A DNA stretch of 64,000 nucleotides from a virus: positions 32,001-96,000 of the IMG/VR virus record IMGVR_UViG_3300045115_000211, one strand, 5' to 3'. Within the stretch, counting starts at the first letter, position 1, and the number at the start of each line of letters is the position of its first letter. The notes under the pieces are model-generated. The model did not search any database, was not told where the DNA came from, and saw nothing but the letters and a program-made list of their open reading frames with translations. A program made the translations under genes and the position numbers. Of this stretch, positions 7,956 through 49,904 are shown piece after piece.

Positions 7956-9038
7956 ATGGCAACCATCTTCAGCCTCTTCACCGGAGCCGGAGGCCTTGAC
8001 CTCGGGTTCGCACAGGCTGGGTTCCGCACGACCCTCGTCGTCGAGACCGACAAGGCCTGTTGCGACACGTTCGTAGCGAACTTCCACGGCGACCTGACGT
8101 CGGTCAACGGTCCCGTCGAGAACGTGTCGTTCTCCGAGGATTCCCCGGGATTGCTGGAGGTTGCGTTCCGTGGAGCGGAATTCGAGAACCGCTTCCTTCA
8201 GCCACATCCAGACGTCGTGATAGGAGGGGCCCCTTGCCAGGCGTTCTCGGTGGCTGGCCTTCAGAACCCAGACGACCCGAGGGGCACCCTGGTGGGCGAG
8301 TTCGTCAGGATCGTCAGGGAGGTCAGACCGAAGGCGTTCGTCCTGGAGAACGTGCCCCGCCTCCTGACCTCGACGAAGCCCCATGCCGAAGCCGCCAGGC
8401 TGTCCGTGCTTGCCCTGCATGACGTCGGCTACTCCGTCACGACGCACGTCCTGAACGCCAGGGACTTCGGCATCCCGCAGTCCCGCGAGAGGGTCTTCTT
8501 CGTCGGGATGATGAGTCCACTCCCCCACCTCCGGGCCTCTTCCACCGACGGCCACATGTTCCCCCACAGGACTGCCGGCGAAGTGCTGCGCGAGATCGGA
8601 AGGGAAGGAAGGGGAAACGTGCCGAACGCCAAGGTCCAGCCGTCCAAGAAGCCCATCCTCCGTCTGACCCCGTACGCCGGGATGCTGTTCAACGGGACAG
8701 GCAGGCCGATCAGGCTGGACGGGTTGTCTGGCGCCCTGCCGGCATCGATGGGAGGGAACCGCACGCCCATCATCGACGACGAGGAACTGTACGACGGGGC
8801 AGAGCCGTGGGTCGTCCGGTACCACTCCAGGCTCGTGGCCGGCGGGGCACCGGAAGCCTCGGCGCCTGTGAGGCTGCGCAGGATGACGACCGTCGAGGCG
8901 GCGGCCTTCCAGGGGTTCCCGTCCGGCTTCAAGTTCCGTGGGAGCCAAAGCAGCGTGTTCAGGCAGATCGGCAACGCCGTCCCTCCCCCGATGGCGCGCG
9001 CCGTGGCGATGGCGGTCAAGGAGCACATGGGGCTTTGA
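7956..9038 (+). CDS. DNA cytosine-C5 methyltransferase
   Basis: SLFTGAGGLD, GGAPCQAFS, ENV, QSRERVF, QIGNAV; TATAAT 6 nt before ATG. Confidence 0.95.
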   Translation: MATIFSLFTGAGGLDLGFAQAGFRTTLVVETDKACCDTFVANFHGDLTSVNGPVENVSFSEDSPGLLEVAFRGAEFENRFLQPHPDVVIGGAPCQAFSVAGLQNPDDPRGTLVGEFVRIVREVRPKAFVLENVPRLLTSTKPHAEAARLSVLALHDVGYSVTTHVLNARDFGIPQSRERVFFVGMMSPLPHLRASSTDGHMFPHRTAGEVLREIGREGRGNVPNAKVQPSKKPILRLTPYAGMLFNGTGRPIRLDGLSGALPASMGGNRTPIIDDEELYDGAEPWVVRYHSRLVAGGAPEASAPVRLRRMTTVEAAAFQGFPSGFKFRGSQSSVFRQIGNAVPPPMARAVAMAVKEHMGL

Positions 9039-9257
9039 GGAGGCAGTCATGAGGCAGGCCGTGTTCGGGTTCGCTGGCACACAGTCGCTCGCGCTGAAGT
9101 TGATGAACGTGTTCGAGCGCCACGGGGCGAGCATCGTTGCGATAACCGAGTCGCCGTGCAAGCACGACATCGACAGGTTCAAGGTGTTCGGGTTCGTCGA
9201 GGAGCAGTCGCAGGCCGATGCCATCGCGAAGGAAATCGATAAGTTGCGGCAGGGGGC

Positions 9258-9286
9258 TTGACTCCGCATCGGACATGTCGTATCGT
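9258..9286 (+). promoter_or_regulatory. sigma70-like promoter
   Basis: TTGACT-17bp-TATCGT. Confidence 0.7.
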
Positions 9287-9306
9287 GTTGGCGAACGGAG
9301 AATCGC

Positions 9307-9399
9307 ATGCCGAAGACAGCCAAGCCAGTTAGCGGGACGGGAGAGTGGGCGGCCCACGTCGCCAACATCCAGAACGGGTGTGAGCACGACTGGCGATAA
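9307..9399 (+). pseudogene. orphaned original 5' end of the radical-SAM-like gene at 10374
   Basis: MPKTAKPVSGTGEWAAHVANIQNGCEHDW(R*) aligns with MTKPVSGTKEWACHSVNIQTGCENDC; GGAG SD. Confidence 0.85.
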
Positions 9400-9486
9400 A
9401 TCGTGGCAGGGATTTGACGATGTATTCGAGAATGACCATAGCAATGACCTCAACGGCTGCAAACACGGCAGTCGAAAGGAGTTGCT

Positions 9487-10377
9487 ATGGAACAGACGCT
9501 CGTATGCAGGAAGTGCGGAAAGGACTGCGGCCATCGTCGGGCGATGCTTGGGTATGTGAAGCAACGAATCCTGGTCAAGTCCTGCGACCAATGTCGGGCG
9601 GATTCCAAGACCAAGATGCGGGCGTTGATGGCGGAACGCAATCGCAGTCCAAAGATGCGGGCGTTGAGCTCGAAGAGAATGCGTCGGCTCAACCCAATGC
9701 ACGATGCCAGAGTTGCTTTGCGGGTGGCCGAGACGAACAGAGAGGCGTATCGGACTGGACAAAGGCGTTCGTCGTTCTGCGATCCGGAGACGAAGTCCAA
9801 GGCGGAGGATGGCTCCAGAAGGTTTTGGGGGAGCGAACGGTCAAGAGAACTGAAGGAACGATTCAGGAAGAGAATGTCTCGGTCGAACCCAATGTTCGAT
9901 CCGCAGACCGTAGAGAGGGTTCAAGCAACCCTACGGGATGGTCGCTCCTCAGGACGCATCATCACCCCAAGAGGGAAGTTGCATTGGCTATGGAAGGGGA
10001 ACCGTTCGTTCAACCTTGTGGTTCGATCAAGGCTCTACAAAGTGTGGACAATCCCTGCCGTGGTCAGGGACGGATTTGCTTGCGTACTGTGCGGCAGAGG
10101 ACAATGCTCGTTGCAGGTTCATCATCTCAAGCCACTATCCGTCATCATCGGGGCGGTTCTAGCAAGAGAGGGAGTGCTGGATGTCGAGAGTTTGGCTGGT
10201 TCAGAGCGATACTCTCAACTGGCCGATTTGGTTGTCTCGGAGCATCGTTTGGAGGATGGAATCACGGTTTGCAGGCGGTGTCACGCTTCCATAGATCGTC
10301 AGTATCGTGGGCATGAGATGCTGAACCAAGACAGATTGAGCAACGGGATGCAAGCCGTTAGGCAGAGGACTTCATGA
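9487..10377 (+). CDS. HNH endonuclease (free-standing homing-endonuclease-like)
   Basis: RDGFACVLCG...VHHLKP...GITVCRRCH; NPM repeats; lower GC. Confidence 0.85.
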   Translation: MEQTLVCRKCGKDCGHRRAMLGYVKQRILVKSCDQCRADSKTKMRALMAERNRSPKMRALSSKRMRRLNPMHDARVALRVAETNREAYRTGQRRSSFCDPETKSKAEDGSRRFWGSERSRELKERFRKRMSRSNPMFDPQTVERVQATLRDGRSSGRIITPRGKLHWLWKGNRSFNLVVRSRLYKVWTIPAVVRDGFACVLCGRGQCSLQVHHLKPLSVIIGAVLAREGVLDVESLAGSERYSQLADLVVSEHRLEDGITVCRRCHASIDRQYRGHEMLNQDRLSNGMQAVRQRTS

Positions 10378-11174
10378 CAAAACCAGTTAGTGGAACCAAA
10401 GAATGGGCTTGCCATTCCGTCAACATTCAGACGGGATGCGAAAACGACTGCAGATATGGGTATTGCAAGGCCCAAGCCATCAGGTTCGGGAAGGCGACTC
10501 CCGAGTCTTGGAGCCATCCAGTAATCAACCAAAAGGCAGTCAACCAAAAGAGAAGGAAATTGGACGGAACCGTGATGTATCCTACCCAGCACGACATCAC
10601 TCCCGCCAATCTATTGCCATCCATCGGGGTGCTCTGCAAGATGCTGGCCGCCGGCAACAAGGTCCTGATCGTGTCCAAGCCCCACCTGGAATGCGTGCAG
10701 GCCATGGTCACGCAGCTCGACCAGTGGAGGGGACGGGTTCTCTTCCGCTTCACCATCGGCTCGGTCGATGACGATGTGCTCGGCTTCTGGGAGCCGCACG
10801 CCCCCAAGTTCGGCGAACGCCTCAAGGCGTTGCGGCACGCCTATGCCAACGGGTTCGAGACCAGCGTATCGTGCGAGCCGATGCTGGACGACCACGTCCG
10901 GGATGTCATCGAGGAGGTCAGGCCGTATGTCACGGACGCCGTCTGGATCGGCAAACCCAACAAACTGATGTTGCGCGCCGGCATGAACATGGGGTCGCTA
11001 CCTGAGGCGTCGGAGACAATCAAGAGAGCCAACATCCTGATCTCTACGTTCACGGACGACTTCGTCTGGACCCTGTACCGCCAGTACGATGACGACCCGA
11101 TGGTGAAGTGGAAGGACTCGATCAAGCAGGTCATCGGCCTGCCGCGACCGACGGTCAAGGGGATGGACAAGTGA
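10374..11174 (+). CDS. radical-SAM-like protein (SplB/DUF5131-like)
   Basis: NIQTGCENDCRYGYC, LIVSKP, RFTIGS, WEP.AP, SVSCEPML. Confidence 0.75.
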   Translation: MTKPVSGTKEWACHSVNIQTGCENDCRYGYCKAQAIRFGKATPESWSHPVINQKAVNQKRRKLDGTVMYPTQHDITPANLLPSIGVLCKMLAAGNKVLIVSKPHLECVQAMVTQLDQWRGRVLFRFTIGSVDDDVLGFWEPHAPKFGERLKALRHAYANGFETSVSCEPMLDDHVRDVIEEVRPYVTDAVWIGKPNKLMLRAGMNMGSLPEASETIKRANILISTFTDDFVWTLYRQYDDDPMVKWKDSIKQVIGLPRPTVKGMDK

Positions 11175-11349
11175 AGGAAGATGAACGGGCGTTTGGATTC
11201 GGGCAAGACCCACAGGTTCGCCTTCTCCCCAGGGCCGCCAGGTGGCCGAGGATGGTCACGCGGGAGGAATTCGAGACGATGGAGAGGGCAAGGAAAGAAA
11301 CCAAGTGCGTACTGTGCGAGGCTGGGATACCCCTCAGGAGGGCAATGGC

Positions 11350-11826
11350 ATGACGACCGACACGTCCGCGGTAGACAGGGACATCGAGCGCGAACTTTCT
11401 GATCAGGATGTCTACCCTCCCGACCTCGTGGTCGCCATGACCATCTGGGGAGAGGCGAGGGGCGAGCCGGTCGATGGCAAGCGGGCCGTGGCGGGAGTCA
11501 TCAGCAACCGCGCCGTCCGGCGCAGCATCAGGACGGGCTATCCCGTCTTCCTGGCCGCGTCGGAGGTTTGCCTCGCCCCGCGCCAGTTCAGTTGCTGGAA
11601 GGACGGCAAGTTCGTCCAGCAGAAGCCCGACGAGTCCTCGGACGCCTGGGTCGACTGCGTCGCGGCCGCCAAGGAAATCTTCCTCGACTCCTACGACCCG
11701 CCCACTGGCGCCACGCACTACTACGCCGTGGGGGCGTGCGAGCGTCCAAGCTGGGCCGACAGGATGGAGTACGTCGGCAAGGTCGGAAGGCACCTGTTCT
11801 ACTTCGAGGACGGATGGAGGGGCTGA
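11350..11826 (+). CDS. cell wall hydrolase (SleB/Hydrolase_2)
   Basis: TIWGEARGE, VAGVISNR, QFSCW, TGATHYY, GRHLFY. Confidence 0.9.
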   Translation: MTTDTSAVDRDIERELSDQDVYPPDLVVAMTIWGEARGEPVDGKRAVAGVISNRAVRRSIRTGYPVFLAASEVCLAPRQFSCWKDGKFVQQKPDESSDAWVDCVAAAKEIFLDSYDPPTGATHYYAVGACERPSWADRMEYVGKVGRHLFYFEDGWRG

Positions 11827-19285: not shown

Positions 19286-19810
19286 CGCTGTGGTCACGGC
19301 GACAGGCAATCCATGCGCATCCTCGTGGACAGGGAGAACGCGGTGGTGGACGAGCTCAGGGCCAAGATGGCCAAGCCCGACCGCAGGCCGGCGTACCGCA
19401 CCGCCACCAGGGACTTCGTCGTGGACGGGTGGGACGGCGAAATGCCGATCCTTCGGGGGATGGGGCAGGTGGCCGTCGCGAGGGGGCAGACCCTGAAGAT
19501 CCCCAGGATGATGAGGCACGGGTACCTCGGCGTCACGGCGGACCTCGACGGGGACGGGACGGTGCAGGCCGTGATGCCGCATCGCGACGACAGGATCGCC
19601 GACCTGCGCTGGACGCGGGAGCCGACGGGCTTCGACCCGCAGGACGACGCCGACAGGAGGTTCGACGAGATGGTCGGGGGACAGGAGGACATCTTCCAAT
19701 GAGCGACTTCGAGAAGGACAGCGACTGTGTGGCGTACGCCCTCAACCTGTGGGCCAACTTCATCGAGACGGGAGACCTCACGTTGACGCACGACGATGTC
19801 GTCGGCCATC

Positions 19811-20923
19811 TTAAGGCTCTTGAATCCAACGACCAGACGTTCTCATGCCGCCACGAGAGGCAGACTCTGTTCGGCAAGCTGAAGGTCCTGACTGGGGACC
19901 AGAAGGCGTTCGTGGCGAGGCTGCGGGAACTTGCCAAAAAGCACAGGACTGCGTCTTGATGTGACGAGACAACGCATCTGAAGAGCATTTGAATTTCCTG
20001 TCCAGAAAAACGGTGGCATCGTGATAGAGGTATTGGTACATCCGAAAGAAGTTGCGCATCCCGTTGTGCTCGATCCTTACGACCCTTCCGCTTCGGGAGT
20101 TGTTTCTCGGTTTGGCTCTCCTCATTCCGCACTCGCGGCACACGACTTCATCAACATGGTTGATGAATTCAATCGTTCCTATCATTCCGAACGAGCAACT
20201 GCCAGAGTTTGTCTTACTGATAGACCACCAGCCATCCCCATCGAAGTACCCCCGGATGAAATGCCTAACAAGGTTTTCTCTGATGTGGGGGAATGTCAGG
20301 CTTTCGGATTTCCTTGGCGTAACGCCACACGAAATAAGAGCCTTTGCAACAAGGCTGGAAAAGACTTTCAAATGAGTTCTGTGCCGAGTTTTCCCCGTTT
20401 GTTTGTCAATGTACTGGTCGAAGGAGATGGGATGGTCGGATTTCATAGCCGACCTAATCTTTTCCAAGTGCCCACAGTCCTTCCTGTTCAAACACAGCCT
20501 GAACCCTCGTGTTTTGTTGTCGTTGTCGACGCACCCGTCGGCGGCAATGAACCCAAGCCAATAGGCCTTATCCTCGGAATCGATGCTATCAAAGAAGTGC
20601 TCATCGACGGCATGAGTTCTGCGATGTCTTGTCTCAAAGACGCCTTGTGTTTCGAGGATTTGCTTGACCTTGTTGTAATGGAGGTCAAAACTTCGTGCTA
20701 TCTTGCTGGTTGGACATCCATCAGCAAACATCCTTATGACCGCTTGGAGGGTCTCGTGTGGAACGGGACACTGATCTTGGGCTATCAGGGCCGCTCTCCT
20801 CAAACAACTCTTGACCGTATTGCGGCCCAACCCCATCTCGACGGACAGCCTTCTTATCGCTTGTCCCGCATTGAATCTACGGATGATTTCTTCCGTCACT
20901 TGCTCGGACAGTTTGGCTGGCAT
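19811..20923 (-). CDS. LAGLIDADG homing endonuclease with N-terminal HTH repeats
   Basis: KAYWLGFIAADG and HFIRGYFDGDG motifs; low GC; antisense to flanks. Confidence 0.9.
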   Translation of the reverse strand: MPAKLSEQVTEEIIRRFNAGQAIRRLSVEMGLGRNTVKSCLRRAALIAQDQCPVPHETLQAVIRMFADGCPTSKIARSFDLHYNKVKQILETQGVFETRHRRTHAVDEHFFDSIDSEDKAYWLGFIAADGCVDNDNKTRGFRLCLNRKDCGHLEKIRSAMKSDHPISFDQYIDKQTGKTRHRTHLKVFSSLVAKALISCGVTPRKSESLTFPHIRENLVRHFIRGYFDGDGWWSISKTNSGSCSFGMIGTIEFINHVDEVVCRECGMRRAKPRNNSRSGRVVRIEHNGMRNFFRMYQYLYHDATVFLDRKFKCSSDALSRHIKTQSCAFWQVPAASPRTPSGPQSGPSACRTESASRGGMRTSGRWIQEP

Positions 20924-20994
20924 ATTTCATCCTTCGATGCCGTCAATCAAAAACCCTTCTCGGGATGCTGGATGTTTCAACCATAGGAGATCAC

Positions 20995-22161
20995 ATGAGA
21001 ATAGGCCTATATGCCGCAACTCTTGACCCCATCACGAAGGGCCACCGCTGGATCATCGACGAGGCCGCCGGAATGTTCGACAAGCTCGTGGTCGCGGTCG
21101 CCGACAACCACGAGAAGCGCGGCAAGGTCATGTTCAGCGCCGAGGAGCGCGTCGCCATGGTCAAGGACACCCTCCCCCTTGGCCTCGAACTCGGCAATGA
21201 CGTCGAGGTCGTGACGTACGCCGGCGGGCATACCCCGCCGTTCACGGCGCGGTTCGCCAAGGCCATCGGGGCGACGCACCTCATCCGCGGCATCCGCAAC
21301 GAGGCGGACTTCACGGCGGAGCAGGCAATCCGTCACGTCAACCAGGACATCTGCCCGGAGGTCAGGACCGTCTTCCTCGTGCCGCCGCGGCACCTCTCGG
21401 AGGTCAGCTCCAGCATGGTCAAGGGCCTTGTCGGGTTCGACGGGTGGCGGGACGTCGTGGAGCGGTACGTCGATTCGCCTGTCGTGAAGCGGTTCCAGGC
21501 CAGGCGGCTGGAGGCCAGCGAGGTCCTGATGCGCCTGGGAGCGTCATACTCGTGCGCCTTCGCCGCCAAACAGTTCCTCGACAAGGCGTACGGGGACATG
21601 TCCGAGTCCAGCCGGGTCTACCACAACGACCGCCACATCAGGGAGTGCCTTGGGCTGATGGACATGGTGGTTTCCGACAGCCACGTCAGCCCCCAGGACT
21701 TCGACGAGATCGCCGCCGCCCTATGGTTCCACGACTGCGTCTACGACGTCGGGTCGAAGAACAACGAGACCCGCAGCGCTGGGGAGTTCGGGAGGTTCGC
21801 CTCCGAGATCAACACGGACGTCGTGGCGACCGTCAAGAGGATGATCGAAGGCACGAGGGAGCATGCGTTCAGCGGCGAGCACAAGGCGAACGTCGTCAGC
21901 GACATCGATATGGCGATCCTCGCGGCGCCGGCGGCGAGGTTCGGAGAGTACGAGGACGCGATCCGGCGCGAGTACGGCCACATCCCCGACCCAATGTTCT
22001 ACCCAGCCCGAAGGAGGTTCCTTGAGAGCTGCCTAGCCGGGCCGGTCTACTATGCCGAGAAGTTCCGGCCGCTTCGCGCGCGGATGGCCGAAAACGTCCG
22101 GCGGCTGCTGGCGACCGAGCCGTACGCCAAGAGGTGGGATCTGCAAGGCAATGAGGGATAA
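20995..22161 (+). CDS. coaD: phosphopantetheine adenylyltransferase fused to HD-domain phosphohydrolase
   Basis: DPITKGH, IRGIRN.ADF..E, VSSSMVK; then RVYHN..HI, WFHDCVY, DIDMAIL, IRREY. Confidence 0.9.
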   Translation: MRIGLYAATLDPITKGHRWIIDEAAGMFDKLVVAVADNHEKRGKVMFSAEERVAMVKDTLPLGLELGNDVEVVTYAGGHTPPFTARFAKAIGATHLIRGIRNEADFTAEQAIRHVNQDICPEVRTVFLVPPRHLSEVSSSMVKGLVGFDGWRDVVERYVDSPVVKRFQARRLEASEVLMRLGASYSCAFAAKQFLDKAYGDMSESSRVYHNDRHIRECLGLMDMVVSDSHVSPQDFDEIAAALWFHDCVYDVGSKNNETRSAGEFGRFASEINTDVVATVKRMIEGTREHAFSGEHKANVVSDIDMAILAAPAARFGEYEDAIRREYGHIPDPMFYPARRRFLESCLAGPVYYAEKFRPLRARMAENVRRLLATEPYAKRWDLQGNEG

Positions 22162-22693: not shown

Positions 22694-23023
22694 ATGTGCG
22701 ACATGAGGATCCAGGACAAGGCGGAGTACCGCCGCCTGCTCGACGAGATCGGAGCCGACTACTGCCCCGAGGGGAGGTACTGCATCTTCAAGGAGTTCCT
22801 CGTGGCGTCGCACCCCTCGCGTCGCCTGCTCGTCCAACTCAAGTGCTGCGACAAGGCAAAGTTCGCGTGGAGCAAGGACGGCGGCAAGGACATCGGATGG
22901 GAGGAGACGCTAAAACGCTGGGTAGATTCGGGATTGGCAAGGCGCTTTGCGGAGGTCTACGCGGACTCCCTTTCTCCAAGGGAAGTGTTCAGAATGACAT
23001 TCGAACAGCCGCAAGTCTCTTGA
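22694..23023 (+). CDS. hypothetical protein with low-GC 3' end
   Basis: SD AGGAG; codon use shifts after ~22895. Confidence 0.65.
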   Translation: MCDMRIQDKAEYRRLLDEIGADYCPEGRYCIFKEFLVASHPSRRLLVQLKCCDKAKFAWSKDGGKDIGWEETLKRWVDSGLARRFAEVYADSLSPREVFRMTFEQPQVS

Positions 23024-23706
23024 TCGTCGGCACCTTCACGATGCTTGGCTCCATTCGTGTTCCCCATCAGAGCTTTTCTGATTTTGTCCCTAGTTTCTTG
23101 GGATACTGGGTGTCCCATTCTTGCAGCACTCATCTTGGCTCGTGTGACGTCAGATATGATCTTGCCAGTTTCAGATTGACTGATCTTCAGACGCACCGAT
23201 GCTGGGATATGCCGACCCCAGTTGGGGCTTTTCGACCCCCTGAAAGCCTTGGATATTTTCGCTTTAGTCGCTTCCGACTGTGGGTGTCCTGGTTTCCCCA
23301 GTTTCGCAACTCGCATCAGCATCTTTGTATGCTCTGAATGAGGTCCGCGTTTCTTCCCAAGTTTGGCAATGCTCATCCTCCTGCGACTTTCTTCGCTATG
23401 CCTTGGCGCATGACCGCCGCCCATCATATTGTATCCATGGGCCCTGTCGGTAGTCCTATATGCGGCAATCAGGCGAGATTCTGCCTCGTCCAAGTTTTCA
23501 GGAGCGCAGTGCTCCAAGACTTCGAAAACAAAAGCATCCTCTCCGTGCTTGTTCCATGCGGCCTGAAGGTGGCGATTTGGATGGAATCCACGACGCAGTT
23601 GTCCCCTGTGCCCATTCCATCTGTTCCTGATGTCCATGGATTGACCGATGTTCCGCTTCCCGTTGACGGTGTTCGTGATGCTGTATATGCCGCTCATCTT
23701 GCTCAC
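22957..23706 (-). CDS. GIY-YIG endonuclease with NUMOD3 repeats
   Basis: SGIYSITN..NGKRNIGQS, R, GYN, repeated HSEE...MS.AK.G; low GC. Confidence 0.9.
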   Translation of the reverse strand: MSKMSGIYSITNTVNGKRNIGQSMDIRNRWNGHRGQLRRGFHPNRHLQAAWNKHGEDAFVFEVLEHCAPENLDEAESRLIAAYRTTDRAHGYNMMGGGHAPRHSEESRRRMSIAKLGKKRGPHSEHTKMLMRVAKLGKPGHPQSEATKAKISKAFRGSKSPNWGRHIPASVRLKISQSETGKIISDVTRAKMSAARMGHPVSQETRDKIRKALMGNTNGAKHREGADDQETCGCSNVILNTSLGERESA

Positions 23707-23861
23707 TTCGCGCCTCCTTCGACCCTTTCGAATGCTTCTTTGATAAGGTTCCTGACGAGTTGGGAAAGGTTCACGGAATGCTTTTTCTTGAGGACGTCGA
23801 GCATGCGTCTCTCTTCGACCCCTATTTCGACATAGAATCCAATGCGCTTGTCTGTATTCAT
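23703..23861 (-). CDS. 52-aa ribbon-helix-helix-like protein (not in ORF track)
   Basis: MNTDKRIGFYVEIGVEERRMLDVLKKKHSVNLSQLVRNLIKEAFERVEGGAK; GTGA overlap with GIY-YIG start. Confidence 0.7.
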   Translation of the reverse strand: MNTDKRIGFYVEIGVEERRMLDVLKKKHSVNLSQLVRNLIKEAFERVEGGAK

Positions 23862-23911
23862 GCCCTATGGTTCTCTATAACGACTGGGAAATCCTTCGTC
23901 CATTTTGACCG

Positions 23912-23940
23912 TTGACTTCCCTGTCGGGGCATGCTACGAT
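23912..23940 (+). promoter_or_regulatory. sigma70-like promoter
   Basis: TTGACT-17bp-TACGAT. Confidence 0.75.
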
Positions 23941-24007
23941 GCAGGGCGAAAGGAAGGTCAGGACCGATGGGCGAGGCGATTGAGATGGTGGAAGAGGAGG
24001 TGTTCCC

Positions 24008-24901
24008 ATGATCAGCAGGAGCAGGTCGAGCGGTGATTGGGCGTTGAACGTGTTCGAGGGGTTCCGCATCGATACGATGCTGCCGAAGCACACGAGGGTC
24101 CGCGAGCTGGCGAAGCAGGCCCAACAGGGCGGGATCATCCAGAACGCGGTCGGCGACGGCGCATCGTCCGACCCGTTCGTGTCCATGAAGGTCCAGAGGT
24201 GGGGCACCTTCAACGGCTGGGCCGATGGCGACTCCAAGGATCTGCCAGGATGGCGCCGCAAGGCCGTCAGGTTCTTCGAGCGCGCCCTCGGCGTCGCCCC
24301 GGCCCGCAGGGACGACCCTCCGAGCGGCAGGATCGACCCCCTCAGGGTTCTCATGGAGGCGAAGGTGTCCCTCGCGGAAGTCCGCAACTGCATGGACAGG
24401 ATGGCGGCCTACGACGAGGCGATACGGCAGGCGGCGCAGGGAGGCCAGACCGCGCGGGTCGAGAAGCTGATGCTGGCCCGCAAGACAGTCCAGCAGGAGA
24501 GCGTCCTTCTCGCCGGCGGCTTCGGCAGGTTCCTGTCCGAGGCCCAGGCGATAGAGTTCGCGTCGAAGTGCCAGAAGGGGTTGCGGCTCGACTGGGCGGC
24601 CAACTTCGTCCGCCCCTTCCCTCCGGACGCCCTCGCCCGCAAGAAGGCGGCCGACGAGCTGATGGTGTTCGACAACTACGCCTTGCTGCACTACGACCCC
24701 AAGGCGAAGGCGTTCTCGCTGACGGCCGCGCAGGAGGCGGCCAAGCGCGACCCCATCCTGTTCGGGCTGATCGAGGGGGTCAGGAAGCTGTACTTCGTGG
24801 CGGACTGGAAGGACGACGAGTGCGACCTGACGATGGACGAGGTCGCGAGGGTGCTGGGGCACGGCCCAGGGGAAATCGGGATCGATCCGACGAGGGAATA
24901 G
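24008..24901 (+). CDS. hypothetical phage protein
   Basis: strong SD GAGGAGGT; C-terminal RDPILFG...KLYFVADW..D.CDLT. Confidence 0.7.
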   Translation: MISRSRSSGDWALNVFEGFRIDTMLPKHTRVRELAKQAQQGGIIQNAVGDGASSDPFVSMKVQRWGTFNGWADGDSKDLPGWRRKAVRFFERALGVAPARRDDPPSGRIDPLRVLMEAKVSLAEVRNCMDRMAAYDEAIRQAAQGGQTARVEKLMLARKTVQQESVLLAGGFGRFLSEAQAIEFASKCQKGLRLDWAANFVRPFPPDALARKKAADELMVFDNYALLHYDPKAKAFSLTAAQEAAKRDPILFGLIEGVRKLYFVADWKDDECDLTMDEVARVLGHGPGEIGIDPTRE

Positions 24902-31626: not shown

Positions 31627-32267
31627 AAGAAGTTGTTGAGGCGCGGGCGACCATGAAGGTCCGCAACTTCATGCAAGGGGCGGCGATAGGGGTTCTTCTT
31701 CTTTCGATCGTCGTTGGCGTGCTGTGCGCCATCGGGAACGACCGCCGCAAGGCGACCGCCAGGGGCGTCAGGGTCGGATCGTCGAGCCTGTCCGTCAAGT
31801 TCTCCCCCAAGGGCGGCTGCGCCGACGCCATCGTGGCGGAGATCGGCAAGGCGAAGGAGTCCGTCCTCGTGCTCGCCTACTCGTTCACGTCGCGGCCCAT
31901 CTTCGCCGCCCTGCTGGAGGCCAAGAGGAGAGGGATCGACGTCAAGGTCGTCGTGGACGGCGGCCAACTGGAGGTGAGGTCGCTGGTCTGGGAGTCCTAC
32001 TCCAACGGCATACCGACGCTCGTGGACTGCAGGCACGCGATAGCCCACAACAAGGTGATCGTCATCGACGACAGGGTGGTCATCACGGGGTCGTTCAACT
32101 TCTCGGCGGCGGCCGAGAACAGCAACGCCGAGAACCTCCTCGTCATCAGGTCGAAGGACGTCGCGGCGCTGTACGGGTCGAACTGGGCCGAGCACGCTGG
32201 GCACTCCGTGGCGCCGATGGGAGTATCCGACAGGCCGAAGAGGCGCACCATCGAGGAGCAGGAATAA
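31623..32267 (+). CDS. phospholipase D-family nuclease (Nuc-like) with N-terminal TM
   Basis: FSP.GG, AYSFTS, AHNKVIVID, TGSFNFS, NAEN. Confidence 0.9.
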   Translation: MKEVVEARATMKVRNFMQGAAIGVLLLSIVVGVLCAIGNDRRKATARGVRVGSSSLSVKFSPKGGCADAIVAEIGKAKESVLVLAYSFTSRPIFAALLEAKRRGIDVKVVVDGGQLEVRSLVWESYSNGIPTLVDCRHAIAHNKVIVIDDRVVITGSFNFSAAAENSNAENLLVIRSKDVAALYGSNWAEHAGHSVAPMGVSDRPKRRTIEEQE

Positions 32268-32321
32268 TGTTTTCAGGAGCAACTTGCAGGGATTACAGTC
32301 CTTGTTGCCGAATACAAGGAC

Positions 32322-33227
32322 ATGAAGACAAGACTGCAACTGCTCGATGCCCCACATGAAGTCCACGAATCAATACTGGTTGACGAGACAATCGCCAAGT
32401 TTGGCTATGATCCGCGGCTACTCAAGGCGGCCAGCCAGAAGTTGGTAGTCAAGAGGTTTGGTTGCTGCGGACTCGTGGCTGACAGGGGGTATAGAGCCGC
32501 ATCGCAACAGCATTCTTGCCAGAGATGCGCGAACAAGCGTCGCTCGATTGAAACGGCATCCATAAGGTCGGAGCGAATCAAGACATGGCTCAAAACACAT
32601 ACCCACTCCCGCCTCGGCATCAAACATACGGCGGAATCAAAAGCCAAGATGAGCGCCTCTCAAAGAGGACGAGTCATACCTCCAGAGACGCGCATCAAAT
32701 GGATGGGGAAGAAACTATCTCCAGAATCGCGAGCCAAGTTGAGCCAAGCATTGATGGGCAAGCCCTGTCCCCAAAAGGCCTTGGATTACTGGAAGGACCC
32801 CGCTCATCTAGGTGTCAATCATCATCGGTATGGCGTTCGTCCGCCACATGCCCACAAGGTTTGGTACACATGCCAAAATGGAATGCGGATTTGCTTCCGA
32901 AGCACCTGGGAGGCTCGCGTAGCCCGTCACTTCGATGAACAAGGAACAACATGGGAATATGAAACCAAGATGTTCCCAGTCTCGTACGAATGGAACGGCT
33001 CAAGAAAGGAATCAACTTACCGATCTGATTTCTGGTTGCCAAGCCTTGGTTGCTATGTCGAAGTCAAGGGATTGTGGAGAGAAGAGTATGCGACCAAGTT
33101 CAGGGCTTTCCGTGAACAATACCCAGAAGTTGTTGTCGAGGTTTGGGACAGGGCCGTCTTGCGGTCAAAAGGGATCAGAACTGGGTATGTAGCCTATGGA
33201 GAATTCAATGAGGACGACGTACGGTGA
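32322..33227 (+). CDS. NUMOD3 + PD-(D/E)xK endonuclease (free-standing homing-endonuclease-like)
   Basis: HTAESKAKMS; FRSTWE...WEYE...Y.SDFW....YVEVKG; low GC. Confidence 0.8.
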   Translation: MKTRLQLLDAPHEVHESILVDETIAKFGYDPRLLKAASQKLVVKRFGCCGLVADRGYRAASQQHSCQRCANKRRSIETASIRSERIKTWLKTHTHSRLGIKHTAESKAKMSASQRGRVIPPETRIKWMGKKLSPESRAKLSQALMGKPCPQKALDYWKDPAHLGVNHHRYGVRPPHAHKVWYTCQNGMRICFRSTWEARVARHFDEQGTTWEYETKMFPVSYEWNGSRKESTYRSDFWLPSLGCYVEVKGLWREEYATKFRAFREQYPEVVVEVWDRAVLRSKGIRTGYVAYGEFNEDDVR

Positions 33228-33717
33228 GTGTATTTCGGAATTGAAACCAAACGAGGTCATGGTGTTTGGGGCAAATTTATCGGGCTTCCATGGCGCCGGC
33301 TCCGCAGGCTTCGCCTCCTTCGGCGTTCCCGGCAACCGCTGGCGCGAGTTCGACTACGCCAACAAGCCCAAGGGCTGGAAGGGCAAGTGGAACGTCAAGG
33401 GGCAGGGCGAGGGCCTCCAGGAAGGCACCGAGGGCAAGTCCTACGCCCTCCCCACGGTCTGGAAGGCGGGACAGAAGCGCTCGCTGTCGCGCGAGGAGAT
33501 CGTCGGGAACATCCGCAGGATGTACGCCTGCGCCAAGGCCCATCCGCAGTGGCGCTTCCTGGTCGCCGGCTCCACCAGCGGCAGGCTGCTGTGCGGCTAC
33601 TCGCACGAGGAACTGTGTGCGATGTACCGCGTCGCCGGCCCGATCCCGGACAATGTCGTCTTTTCTGTATCATACACGGATATGATCGAAAAGGAGAATC
33701 GAGATGAAGTTGGTTAG
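33208..33717 (+). CDS. phage protein with VFG.N..G.HGAG / G.SYALPT motifs (macro-like family)
   Basis: motif recognition. Confidence 0.65.
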   Translation: MRTTYGECISELKPNEVMVFGANLSGFHGAGSAGFASFGVPGNRWREFDYANKPKGWKGKWNVKGQGEGLQEGTEGKSYALPTVWKAGQKRSLSREEIVGNIRRMYACAKAHPQWRFLVAGSTSGRLLCGYSHEELCAMYRVAGPIPDNVVFSVSYTDMIEKENRDEVG

Positions 33718-46030: not shown

Positions 46031-48428
46031 GCGCGACAAGACCCGATACGTCGGGATGGTCGAGGGCCTCGGCCTCAACCCCTATTCCCGCCCCGCGCAT
46101 CTGGAAAACGGCTTGCTGGCCCCGCGGGAGCGGTGGGAGGTGATGCCGGAACACCTGGGCGCCGTCGCGGCCTTGGCCAAAGCGTTCGGAGACAAGATCG
46201 GTCTCGGAGACATATGCGAGGTGGCGGGAGGCGGGCACGACACGGGAAAGTTTGACCTCCAGATGCTTGGCAGGTTCCTTGGCCGCGTCGAGTCGTTCGA
46301 CCATCCCGCCCTCGGCGCCGCCCTGTTGGACGCCGCCACGGAAGGCATACTGACGCAGCCGATCCTAGGGCACCACCGCTACATCCCCGACGAGACGGAG
46401 GAGGACGCCTCGGAATGCGTGTCTGCAAGGCTGGAGAAGGCAGCCACCCATCGGCATTCCATCGAACTGATACCCTTTCTGGATCGCGCCGCCGAGGCAG
46501 CCAGGACGGCGAAGTCCGTCCTGAAGGCGGCGTTGCGGTCGGAATTCCCGAACGCCGCCGACCAGGAGCGCTTCTTCCCGATGTTCTTCTTCGCGATGCA
46601 GAAGTTCATCAACTCGGCCCTCGTCGATGCGGACTGCCTGTCAGCCGAGAGGTTCCACAAGGGTCACGGACGCCGGAACAGGTTCCCCCCGATGTCCGTC
46701 CTCCTGGATCGACTCGTGAGGTTCCAGGCCCGGGTTGCCGCCGCAGGAGCGGCGACGGCGGAGCCTTGGCTTGTTGAAATGCGCAACGACGTGTGGGCGT
46801 CCGCGATCTCCGCCGCCCGGCTGGAAGCCTCGTTGTACTTCCTGACCGCCCCGACGGGAAGCGCCAAGACGCTGGCCTACGTCGTGCTTGCGATGATGAA
46901 GGCCGTCAGCTTGGGCCTCGACAGGGTGATCATCGTGCTGCCCTATTGCGCGGTCACGTCCCAGGTCAGCGACGTCCTTCGGGCCGCCATCGGCAGGGGC
47001 AATGTGATAGAGCACCACACGGGCTACGACCCCAAGGAACGAGTCAAGTCTTTCCGCTCGTACCGCCAGATACTGGCGAACACCCCAAGGAACACATCGG
47101 CGTTGCACAAGGAGTCCTCCAGCCTGCAGGAGGAGATGAGGCAGACTTTCGAGAACTGGGACGCCCCCGTGATCGTCACCACGCGCGAGCAGTTCGACGA
47201 GTCCTTCTTCTGCCGGCTCCCAGGGCGCAGCCGCAAGGTCCACAACATGGCCAGGAGCGCCATCGTGTTCGACGAGATCCAGGCCGGCAACAGGGACCTG
47301 ACCATACCGTTCGTCGGGATGCTGCACGTCCTGCGGTCGCTGTACCGCTCGGTCGTCATCTGCTCCACGGCCACCCAGCCGTCCTATCACAAGTCTGACG
47401 ACAGGCAGTGGGGACTGGAAGGAGGGGTCGATGTCGTCGCCAGGCATCGCGAGTATTTCGCCATCGCTTCTCGACGCACCAGCATGACCAGGATAGGCAG
47501 GAAGTCATCCCGAGAAGTGGCCGAGATGGTCGCCGAGCACCGCCAGGTCATGTGCGTCCTGAACACGCGCCTCAACGCCGTTCTCGTCTCGACACAACTG
47601 GAGAGGATGGGGGTTCCACACATCCTGCTGTACTCCTTGCGCTGCAAGCGCGAGCGCAACCGGGTGGTTCGCCTGGTGGCGAGGTGCCTGGCAGCAGGCA
47701 TCCCCATCAGGCTGGTCACCACCCAGGCGGTCGAGGCGGGGACTGACTTCGACTTCCCGGTCGGGTATTCCGAGGACGCCCCGTTGGACTCCCTCGACCA
47801 GCGCCGCGGTCGAGTCAACCGGCACGGAAGGCGTGGGACGAGCCAGTTCTACGTGTTCACCCTGTGTGACGGCAACAGCAACCCCTCGTACGTAGCGGGC
47901 TTGGCCTCCACCGAGACCGTCCTCTCATCGACGGGGGACTTCAACGTCGTCGACGTCGGGACGATGGACGCCTACTACGCCAGGATGTTGAGGAGCGAGA
48001 AGCCGCTCGACAAGCACAGGATCGTCCCCGACAGGCACATGTCGATGTCCGGGCGCGGCGGTCTTTTCAGGTCGAAGTCGAAGTATCCTCCGACCGCCGG
48101 GGCCAATGTCTACAGGACGAGGTTCGCCTCGTACGACGAGTTCAAGTACATCGGCGGAAAGTGCAGCGTCGTGATCCCTACCAACGCCGAGTGCAGGCGG
48201 GCGATAGCCGACATGGATGCCGCCATGGCATCGGGAAAGAAGCCCGCTCGAAAGACGTTGGCCACCTTGAGCGGATACGTCGTCAGCATCTATGAGAACG
48301 AACTGGATGATCTCGCCCGTAAGACCATCTTGGAGAACCACAATGGGTTCTTCGTCCTGCGCGATGTGGCTGGCTTCTATAATGCCAAGAGGGGTCTGCT
48401 GATCGCTGGGATGGATGGAGTGGATTGA
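46023..48428 (+). CDS. cas3: Cas3 HD nuclease-helicase
   Basis: EHL, HDTGK, DH, GHH, LVDAD; APTGSAKT, ENWDAP, DEIQ, STATQP, TQ.VEAG.D.DF, Q.RGRVNR.G. Confidence 0.93.
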   Translation: MNRRDKTRYVGMVEGLGLNPYSRPAHLENGLLAPRERWEVMPEHLGAVAALAKAFGDKIGLGDICEVAGGGHDTGKFDLQMLGRFLGRVESFDHPALGAALLDAATEGILTQPILGHHRYIPDETEEDASECVSARLEKAATHRHSIELIPFLDRAAEAARTAKSVLKAALRSEFPNAADQERFFPMFFFAMQKFINSALVDADCLSAERFHKGHGRRNRFPPMSVLLDRLVRFQARVAAAGAATAEPWLVEMRNDVWASAISAARLEASLYFLTAPTGSAKTLAYVVLAMMKAVSLGLDRVIIVLPYCAVTSQVSDVLRAAIGRGNVIEHHTGYDPKERVKSFRSYRQILANTPRNTSALHKESSSLQEEMRQTFENWDAPVIVTTREQFDESFFCRLPGRSRKVHNMARSAIVFDEIQAGNRDLTIPFVGMLHVLRSLYRSVVICSTATQPSYHKSDDRQWGLEGGVDVVARHREYFAIASRRTSMTRIGRKSSREVAEMVAEHRQVMCVLNTRLNAVLVSTQLERMGVPHILLYSLRCKRERNRVVRLVARCLAAGIPIRLVTTQAVEAGTDFDFPVGYSEDAPLDSLDQRRGRVNRHGRRGTSQFYVFTLCDGNSNPSYVAGLASTETVLSSTGDFNVVDVGTMDAYYARMLRSEKPLDKHRIVPDRHMSMSGRGGLFRSKSKYPPTAGANVYRTRFASYDEFKYIGGKCSVVIPTNAECRRAIADMDAAMASGKKPARKTLATLSGYVVSIYENELDDLARKTILENHNGFFVLRDVAGFYNAKRGLLIAGMDGVD

Positions 48429-48465
48429 AATTGGACGAGCCGTCTGCCGGATGAGGACAGAGCAA

Positions 48466-49872
48466 GTCGCTCGCCACGGGCGAGCGTGGATTGAAACGAC
48501 TCCACCCGTCGGGATCAATGGCGGACAGAGGTCGCTCGCCACAAGCGAGCGTGGATTGAAACCCCGACTCGTTCCTGCTGCCCGAGTTCGACGAGTCGCT
48601 CGTCACAGGCGAGCGTGGATTGAAACTGTTCGGGCTTTTGCGACCAAGCCTGATAGCGCTTGTCGCTCGCCACAGGCGAGCGTGGATTGAAACAGGTTGT
48701 TGCCGAGCGCCGCGAGCCGCAACACGAGTCGCTCGCCACAAGCGAGCGTGGATTGAAACGACTCTCGCCGCCGGCATCAATGAAGGTCATGGTCGCTCGC
48801 CACAGGCGAGCGTGGATTGAAATGCGCGCTCGCCGTACGCCTGCCCAAGCTCAGGGGCGTCGCTCGCCACATGCGAGCGTGGATTGAAATGGGTCTTCGG
48901 GCAGGCACAGACCCTGTAGGTATGTCGCTCGCCACAGGCGAGCGTGGATTGAAATAGCGCCTGCTTGGCGGCGATGTAGGCGTCCAGTTGTCGCTCGCCA
49001 CAGGCGAGCGTGGATTGAAATGAGAGCGAACGCCGCGGACATCGCGGCACGACGGGTCGCTCGCCACAGGCGAGCGTGGATTGAAATATCTGGGTTCGGT
49101 CCCTGTCGCCGATGACGCGACGTCGCTCGCCACAGGCGAGCGTGGATTGAAACCTCCCGTACCCGCCGGGCATGCTCAGGTGCTACGGTCGCTCGCCACA
49201 GGCGAGCGTGGATTGAAACGACCGTGAGGGCCTGCCCCAATGTATGTGGCGGTCGCTCGCCACAGGCGAGCGTGGATTGAAACGCGTACGTGCAACTCGT
49301 ACGAAAGCTGGCCAACGGTCGCTCGCCACAGGCGAGCGTGGATTGAAACCTTCACTTGCCCCCGTCTCGCCGCTCGGCGTGTCGCTCGCCACAGGCGAGC
49401 GTGGATTGAAACGCCCTGCATGCCGTCAGGGCCGAGGCGGTGAAGATCGCTCGCCACAGGCGGGCGTGGATTGAAACGTGACGAACGGGGAGACAACGGT
49501 CGACCCTCTGCGTCGCTCGCCACAGGCGAGCGTGGATTGAAACGCCTCCAAAGCGCCGCGCCACGGCCGCCATGGAGTCGCTCGCCACAGGCGGGCGTGG
49601 ATTGAAATATGATGTTCGAACTGGACTGCCCGATCCCGTCTGGTCGCTCGCTACAAGCGAGCGTGGATTGAAACATGTCGAGTCCCTCCTGATACGCGCC
49701 CACCATGGAGTCGCTCGCCACTGGCGAGCGTGGCATTGAAACAAGGTCCGCAGGATATCGATGTGGCCCGACGAGGTCGCTCGCCACAGGCGAGCGTGGT
49801 ATTGAAACCGCAAGCCCCGCTGATCGACATCACCTGCCCGGTCGCTCGCCACAGGCGAGCGTGGATTGAAAC
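48466..49872 (+). CRISPR. type I-C CRISPR array, 22 repeats / 21 spacers (31-35 nt), plus a degenerate repeat at 48400-48431 and a 34-nt spacer before it
   Basis: consensus GTCGCTCGCCACAGGCGAGCGTGGATTGAAAY, 32 bp. Confidence 0.98.
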
Positions 49873-49904
49873 GAGGATTGAACACAAACAAACCCTCTTT
49901 GCCG

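Follow-up and report, generated by a model that had tools for sequence, protein, structure and literature searches.

An HNH endonuclease cassette between a stranded native gene start and a foreign replacement 5' end at a radical-SAM locus of a metagenomic phage

Gene hybrids formed by mobile open reading frames (ORFs) are known from fungal mitochondria, in atp6 of Allomyces macrogynus and in atp6, atp9, cox2 and nad3 of Glomus sp. (PMC3630166). Among T4-like phages, intronless homing has been described for SegF, SegG and MobE. In T4, one-sided homing has been demonstrated, in which the break is repaired illegitimately at microhomology (PMC2988022). Hairpins that hide the ribosome binding site (RBS) control the translation of endonucleases in T4, in combination with internal late promoters (PMC2988022). 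Here we analyze a locus in bases 32001–96000 of the 113-kb metagenomic virus record IMGVR_UViG_3300045115_000211 (completeness estimate 62%; GC content 64%). This stretch of 64,000 nucleotides is referred to as the window, and positions are those of the window unless the genome is indicated. At this locus a gene for a putative HNH endonuclease separates a short, stranded 5' end of a radical-SAM gene from a complete radical-SAM gene with a foreign 5' part. On balance we consider it probable, if not strongly so, that a free-standing HNH cassette was copied into the phage by double-strand-break repair, in a one-off, one-sided homing event.

The features of the locus are listed in Table 1. The endonuclease ORF, a foreign duplicate of the gene end and the displaced native end lie side by side, as in the mobile-ORF gene hybrids. 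The full radical-SAM ORF (10374–11174, 266 codons) has its own Shine-Dalgarno (SD) sequence, its own ATG and a complete family N-terminus, and the TGA stop codon of the HNH gene overlaps its start codon (ATGA). Upstream, the stub has kept the sigma-70-like promoter TTGACT-17-TATCGT, which is the single promoter-like site within 8900–11400 (0.6 expected from shuffled sequences). The spacer between the stub and the HNH gene consists of just 94 non-coding bases, which are filled by a promoter-like motif and a hairpin. A preliminary description of this DNA had proposed a promoter, an SD sequence and 28 codons broken at the second Cys codon, followed by an HNH ORF that is joined through ATGA to a restarted radical-SAM gene, with a low-GC new 5' copy that turns phage-typical near position 10630. 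These elements were all found where they had been placed, with the ATGA overlap at 10374–10377 and the composition change computed at 10620.

The origin of the stub is readily recognized. Within the genome of the phage itself it matches the full radical-SAM gene with an E-value of 4.2e-7, and 23 of 26 residues are identical to the N-terminus of the homologue P0011. Every invariant N-terminal residue of the family (G, E, W, A, N, C) is retained. At third codon positions its G + C content (GC3) of 0.83 coincides with the median for the coding-like ORFs of the window. When the stub is aligned with the new copy, identity amounts to 17 of 23 residues and 70% of the bases; of the base differences, 4 are at first, 5 at second and 12 at third codon positions. 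The new N-terminus had been called "recoded", but is better described as the ordinary divergence of a foreign allele, as 6 of the 23 residues differ too. The longest exact run common to both copies is 8 bases, and loss of the cassette by recombination between the repeats should for this reason not be easy. A filtered translated self-comparison of the genome identified the stub and the radical-SAM gene as the sole short gene-end duplicate that spans an endonuclease gene.

The left junction can be placed within 9393–9405, because the similarity to the family extends to 9392, and from 9406 on the sequence is that of the promoter-like motif that other cassettes also have. The bases 5' of this motif are dissimilar among the cassettes. 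Past the end of the homology the stub reads G CGA TAA, and the new copy C AGA TAT. The two copies share 7 bases (ACGACTG) at the junction, which falls within the invariant G-C-x3-C motif of the family.

The host gene probably belongs to the SPL-like "DNA repair photolyase" group of the Radical SAM superfamily. We collected 1625 homologues from metagenome protein sets and 116 loci on viral contigs. The Pfam Radical_SAM match of the phage copy itself is below threshold (E-value 0.049), and PF04055 is found in most of the 1625 homologues. A tblastn search with the radical-SAM protein against 50,697 records of cultured phages (E-value cut-off 1e-5) gave no match. In the working copy the Cys motif reads C-x3-C-x4-C and not C-x3-C-x2-C, so that the third Cys is located two residues further (positions 10440–10466: C-x3-C-x-Y-G-Y-C, as against the usual C-x3-C-x-Y-C-Y-A). 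This YGYC variant is present in 4 of 120 homologues (P0007, P0008, P0030 and L134) and in none of 80 viral loci. Its carriers are a small number of unrelated contigs, among them an Omnitrophota genome; two distant loci were obtained when genomes were scanned with the YGYC alleles, and neither has an HNH gene.

Base composition marks the block between the junction and the native part of the gene as foreign. The GC content is 0.49–0.58 across approximately 9350–10620 and 0.64–0.70 in the flanks, and for the cassette island as a whole it is 0.55, vs. 0.64 for the genome. The GC3 is 0.63 for the HNH gene, 0.585 for codons 1–82 of the radical-SAM gene and 0.897 for codons 83–266. The maximum-likelihood change point in GC3 lies at codon 82 (nucleotide 10620), with a likelihood ratio that was attained in none of 2000 permutations. 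The N-terminal part of the radical-SAM protein is 10–13 points closer than the C-terminal part to the homologues P0002, P0004 and P0007, where the family shows a mean difference of -4 (sd 6). The locus thus combines a foreign composition with a co-conversion tract that reaches into the adjacent gene, as for free-standing homing endonuclease genes (HEGs). The sporadic presence expected of such genes is seen as well, as an HNH gene 5' of the radical-SAM gene is absent from all 80 other viral radical-SAM loci.

In an alignment of 24 family members 51 residues are invariant, and every one of them is present in the hybrid protein. A hybrid gene with the same N- and C-terminal parts was found in at least three other assemblies (P0001, P0128 and P0129, 99–100% identity), and the HNH protein is recorded on 3 contigs. 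The public IMG annotation of the 113-kb contig starts the protein (P0127) at Met68, giving 199 residues that omit the foreign low-GC 5' part; in the other assemblies it is called as 266 residues.

The protein encoded by the cassette matches PHROG 8446, "HNH endonuclease", with an E-value of 5.8e-8, and a profile search of the PDB matched the HNH domain of IscB (E-value 5e-4). The pattern CxxC...HH...CxxCH (C199, C202, H212, H213, H253, C262, C265 and H266) is invariant in alignments of 6, 11 and 30 relatives, and 8 of the 30 relatives match PF01844. With these conserved putative zinc and catalytic residues, the protein can be assigned to the HNH (beta-beta-alpha-metal) superfamily. It is predicted to be an active endonuclease. 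An exhaustive search identified 1014 cluster representatives at an E-value of at most 0.001, and 237 at 1e-10 or below. The relatives have a common C-terminal core (residues ~120–275), combined with N-terminal zinc-ribbon or helix-turn-helix modules that vary. A modular build of this kind is usual among homing endonucleases. NUMOD3, which matches other endonucleases of the genome, did not match the HNH protein. The records of cultured phages contained no DNA match for the locus and no protein match for the HNH protein, and the HNH protein by itself, used as the query against viral contigs, gave no match.

A second ORF in an alternative frame (9414–10316, + strand, 300 codons) is open over nearly the whole HNH gene. 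It has no Pfam match, and its ATG at 9444 lies 10 bases past the cassette promoter motif. The alternative frame was kept open in none of 5000 synonymous-codon shuffles, and AT-rich relatives of the HNH gene have 28–60 stop codons in it. Codons of the HNH gene that precede codons starting with AA, AG or GA end on T in 2 of 79 cases, where approximately 14 are expected. Throughout the genome T|A is avoided where two codons meet (observed/expected 0.25), and this accounts for these observations partly, not wholly.

The cassette resembles other endonuclease cassettes of the same genome. Approximately 10 low-GC islands of 1.3–1.5 kb each (GC 0.53–0.56, vs. 0.64) are spread over genome positions 2992–108267. 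Inside the window they are located at 9362–10787, 19647–21202, 22757–24153 and 32165–33430, the first of which is the cassette studied here. The majority of the islands overlap GIY-YIG, HNH or NUMOD3 ORFs. Genome-wide, the endonuclease-type ORFs comprise four of the GIY-YIG type and at least two further HNH-like ones, and several have NUMOD3; the HEG content of the phage is on par with that of T4.

The motif in front of the HNH gene, GCAGG-N19-GAAT, has 7 exact matches in the 113-kb genome, where ~0.8 would be expected from base composition. Five of the 7, including the one at 9406–9433, lie directly 5' of endonuclease-type ORFs. In the window the motif, written as GCAGG(G)ATT...N...GAAT, occurs at 9406 and 32286 on the + strand and at 23897 and 20959 on the - strand, and it precedes most endonuclease cassettes. 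Because the motif is shared among these cassettes, the cassette appears to come with a promoter of its own, of the kind that this phage lineage uses for endonuclease cassettes. The ATG is frequently found 8–11 bases past GAAT, and this spacing suggests that the endonuclease cassettes have very short leaders or none.

The leader hairpin (9436–9490) has a predicted folding energy of -29.1 kcal/mol (z-score -7.1), which was equalled by none of 200 shuffled sequences. In a modeled RNA that begins at 9441, near the start expected for the cassette promoter, the AUG of the HNH gene is unpaired. Folding thus points to a possible regulation of the HNH gene by the hairpin together with the two promoters. 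Read-through transcripts from the old promoter would fold the hairpin and leave the endonuclease silent or low, while the hybrid radical-SAM gene would be expressed through its own SD sequence. Transcripts from the cassette promoter would begin within the 5' arm of the hairpin, and the start codon of the HNH gene would be freed.

Under the one-sided homing that we favor, a lower-GC relative would have served as the donor and the high-GC phage as the recipient. The donor cassette would have consisted of the promoter-like motif, the leader hairpin and the HNH gene, directly 5' of the radical-SAM gene of the donor. The resident radical-SAM gene would have been cut at some point between native codons 27 and ~82. 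In the repair that followed, the right end would have found homology within this gene, close to codon 82, and synthesis would have proceeded leftwards over the start of the donor gene, the HNH gene and the leader. The left end would then have been joined non-homologously, ~13 bases 5' of the cassette promoter, because only ~70 bases at 70% identity were available and nothing 5' of the donor HNH gene was homologous. The outcome would be an intact hybrid gene (codons 1–82 foreign, codons 83–266 native) and a dead stub of 28 codons, still preceded by the old promoter and SD sequence. One-sided homing of the kind demonstrated in T4 leads to precisely such an arrangement (PMC2988022). We infer the cut position and the order of the repair events. 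The missing native codons 27 to ~82 are the gap expected from a double-strand break with resection, and since resection can move a junction away from the cut, the Cys motif need not be the cut site.

Several observations weigh against this account. Neither a donor nor an element-free sister genome was found, so that the direction and the mechanism of the event are deduced from composition alone. The searches of viral contigs with the back-translated stub peptide, made in order to find an element-free allele, and with the upstream 70-residue ORF gave no match. The Pfam HNH_2 match of the HNH protein scores 16.9 bits, below the cut-off of 21. Its AlphaFold model (pLDDT 66.6) retrieved nothing with Foldseek at an E-value of at most 0.001, with a few HNH domains among the weaker rows. 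The split between the N- and C-terminal parts of the radical-SAM protein gives a modest phylogenetic discordance, which would fit a mosaic gene and is by itself not decisive. Finally, the left junction falls precisely within the motif that is best conserved in the gene, a position that a random non-homologous join would reach only by chance; this favors an element that has the motif as its target.

Such a dedicated element would lack an intron or intein and would consist of the promoter, the HNH gene and a replacement N-terminal segment. Its endonuclease would cut the DNA that encodes the Cys motif of radical-SAM genes, the diverged N-terminus with the third Cys moved by two residues would make the carrier allele immune, and in the next round of homing the stub would provide the homology on the left side. 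We judge this unlikely, although the position of the left junction inside the invariant G-C-x3-C motif speaks for it, as does the rare YGYC variant that the HNH-linked allele has immediately 3' of this junction. That no run of identical bases between the stub and the new copy exceeds 8 speaks for it too, and precedents exist in the gene hybrids of Allomyces and Glomus (PMC3630166) and in the cargo fragments that have been proposed as recombination substrates (PMC10055350). Against it, a scan with a working positive control saw no stub or duplicated gene end at the 80 viral loci of the radical-SAM gene or at the 11 metagenome and 23 viral loci of HNH relatives, a set of loci that does not include those of the closest HNH relatives (P0122, P0123 and P0130, 58–67% identity). 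The 50 loci from a metagenome scan with the HNH alignment did not exceed 45% identity, and no radical-SAM gene adjoined any of them. The Omnitrophota genome has the YGYC variant without an upstream HNH gene, and the foreign tract extends 168 bases beyond the junction position, which simple co-conversion explains equally well. The preliminary description had proposed a splicing-free homing element that inserts in the Cys motif and carries a cleavage-resistant N-terminus as a built-in part. It is borne out in part, in that a foreign block at ~9393–10620 carries the HNH gene and a replacement 5' end and has left the native promoter, SD sequence and 28 codons upstream. Insertion at the Cys motif is not established by our data, which place only the left junction there, and the built-in resistance is possible but, given the loci without a stub or duplicate, unproven. 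Ordinary mosaic recombination is the other source of a foreign block that would include the HNH gene; it would require one homologous and one illegitimate crossover and no cut by the HNH protein, which might be inactive or serve another purpose. Phage genomes are mosaic, and the sub-threshold Pfam match, the target specificity of the HNH protein, which is only predicted, and the modest discordance between the protein parts would all agree with this. We nevertheless hold it to be quite improbable, as all catalytic and zinc residues of the HNH protein are conserved, the cassette matches ~10 other endonuclease cassettes of the genome in size, low GC and promoter motif, and HEGs under tight control typically have a hairpin at the start codon.

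Two further explanations concern the integrity of the gene. If the locus contained an intron or an intein, or were a "fractured gene", the stub would be the first exon or extein, joined at the Cys codon to the downstream gene. Joining 9392 to 10449 does give an open, family-like frame, the junction is followed directly by a codon for Cys, the residue that inteins usually have at position +1, and fractured genes with free-standing endonucleases are known (PMC2677866). The Rfam scan of 9000–11300 with E-values up to 10 however found no group I or group II model and merely three chance-level miRNA or snoRNA rows, and the 94 non-coding bases of the spacer are mostly taken up by the promoter motif and the hairpin. 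The frame of the stub stops two codons past the junction and contains several more stops, which separate it from the HNH frame; neither a Hint domain (Pfam) nor a split-intein half was found. Moreover, the downstream ORF begins with the family N-terminus and not with a C-intein, and it is this 266-residue form that is called in the three other assemblies. Splicing of either kind is therefore very doubtful, and the earlier statement that there are no intron or intein signatures holds. A chimera of two related phage populations, made during metagenome assembly, would account for an abrupt change in composition in what is a metagenome contig, but is hardly credible: the 7 bases common to both sides of the left junction are far below an assembler overlap, and the recurrence of the same hybrid at 99–100% identity in three other assemblies, with the HNH gene on 3 contigs, argues against an assembly artifact.

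Table 1. Features of the radical-SAM/HNH locus and its neighbors (window positions).
Feature	Position	Strand	Basis or remark
C-5 cytosine methylase gene, 5' neighbor of the locus	7962–9038		Pfam 4e-62
70-codon ORF between the methylase gene and the locus	9049–9261
Sigma-70-like promoter TTGACT-17-TATCGT of the original radical-SAM gene, now 5' of the stub	9258–9286	+	Consensus match only; putative function
Stub, native radical-SAM 5' end: 28 family-like codons, then W, R, stop	9307–9399	+	Family homology stops at 9392
Junction interval from the last family-like base to the cassette promoter motif, origin unassigned	9393–9405	+	Direct sequence reading
Cassette promoter-like motif GCAGG-N19-GAAT	9406–9433	+	Common to other endonuclease cassettes of the genome
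RNA hairpin pairing the SD region and AUG of the HNH gene	9436–9490	+	Folding energy
HNH endonuclease gene, 296 codons: Cys4 zinc ribbon (N-terminal), helical middle, HNH core (C-terminal)	9487–10377	+
Foreign radical-SAM 5' part, codons 1–82, with the rare Cys-motif variant C-x3-C-x4-C	10374–10620	+	GC3 change point
Native radical-SAM 3' part, codons 83–266	10621–11174	+	GC3 0.897
Cell-wall hydrolase gene, 3' neighbor of the locus	11242–11826

Elsewhere in the window, at approximately 48400–49900 (genome 80.4–81.9 kb), the genome self-comparison revealed dense tandem repeats at the protein level, with units of ~66 or 132 bases and 55–75% identity between copies.

The locus provides a base-resolved phage example of a homing endonuclease in a conserved gene whose function would be kept without splicing, by a swapped donor start. 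The end of the stub and the change point in GC3 bracket the interval in which the target of the endonuclease is expected. Stubs and hybrid genes of this kind can mislead gene callers, as the IMG start at Met68 illustrates, and they can confound phylogenies based on single genes. Should the dedicated element be real, the locus would reflect pressure from a selfish element on an iron-sulfur cluster motif, with an endonuclease reshaping the cluster-binding motif of an enzyme, and would correspond, at the 5' end, to the mobile-ORF hybrids of fungi.

Compared with the described systems, the fungal hybrids share with this locus an endonuclease ORF that is combined with a diverged foreign gene end, the native end stranded next to it, and copies that differ mostly in composition; the hybrid gene is expressed there (PMC3630166). 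They differ in that the 3' end of the gene is replaced, by elements of the LAGLIDADG or GIY-YIG type that are often in frame, whereas here it is the 5' end, the endonuclease is of the HNH type and the host is a phage. The phage element must in addition supply an SD sequence and an ATG, and no recurrence at the same site was found among the 80 + 11 + 23 loci. Intronless homing in T4 resembles the locus in that an endonuclease gene lies between genes, a neighbor is co-converted by break repair, a microhomology junction arises if one flank is non-homologous, and a hairpin at the RBS is combined with an internal promoter. In T4, however, homology is normally present on either side and no stub remains, and activity and target have been demonstrated there, whereas they are predicted here. 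In the HEG islands of ICP1-like phages, small ORFs beside HEGs are likewise fragments of the adjacent full-length gene (PMC10055350; PMC10448857). Those fragments derive from essential structural or replication genes and their junctions have not been dissected, whereas here both boundaries and both origins are resolved. The nrdA/mobE locus of Aeh1 and the fractured genes with split inteins (PMC2677866) also have a free-standing endonuclease gene within a formerly single conserved gene; they yield two polypeptides or depend on protein splicing, where in the present case the DNA itself again encodes one complete polypeptide, with the upstream piece redundant. The literature already documents endonucleases that come with a foreign gene end and strand the native one, co-conversion in the vicinity of free-standing endonuclease genes, and phage endonuclease genes that have gene fragments next to them; what this locus adds is a clean, boundary-resolved phage case in which the 5' end of the gene is replaced.

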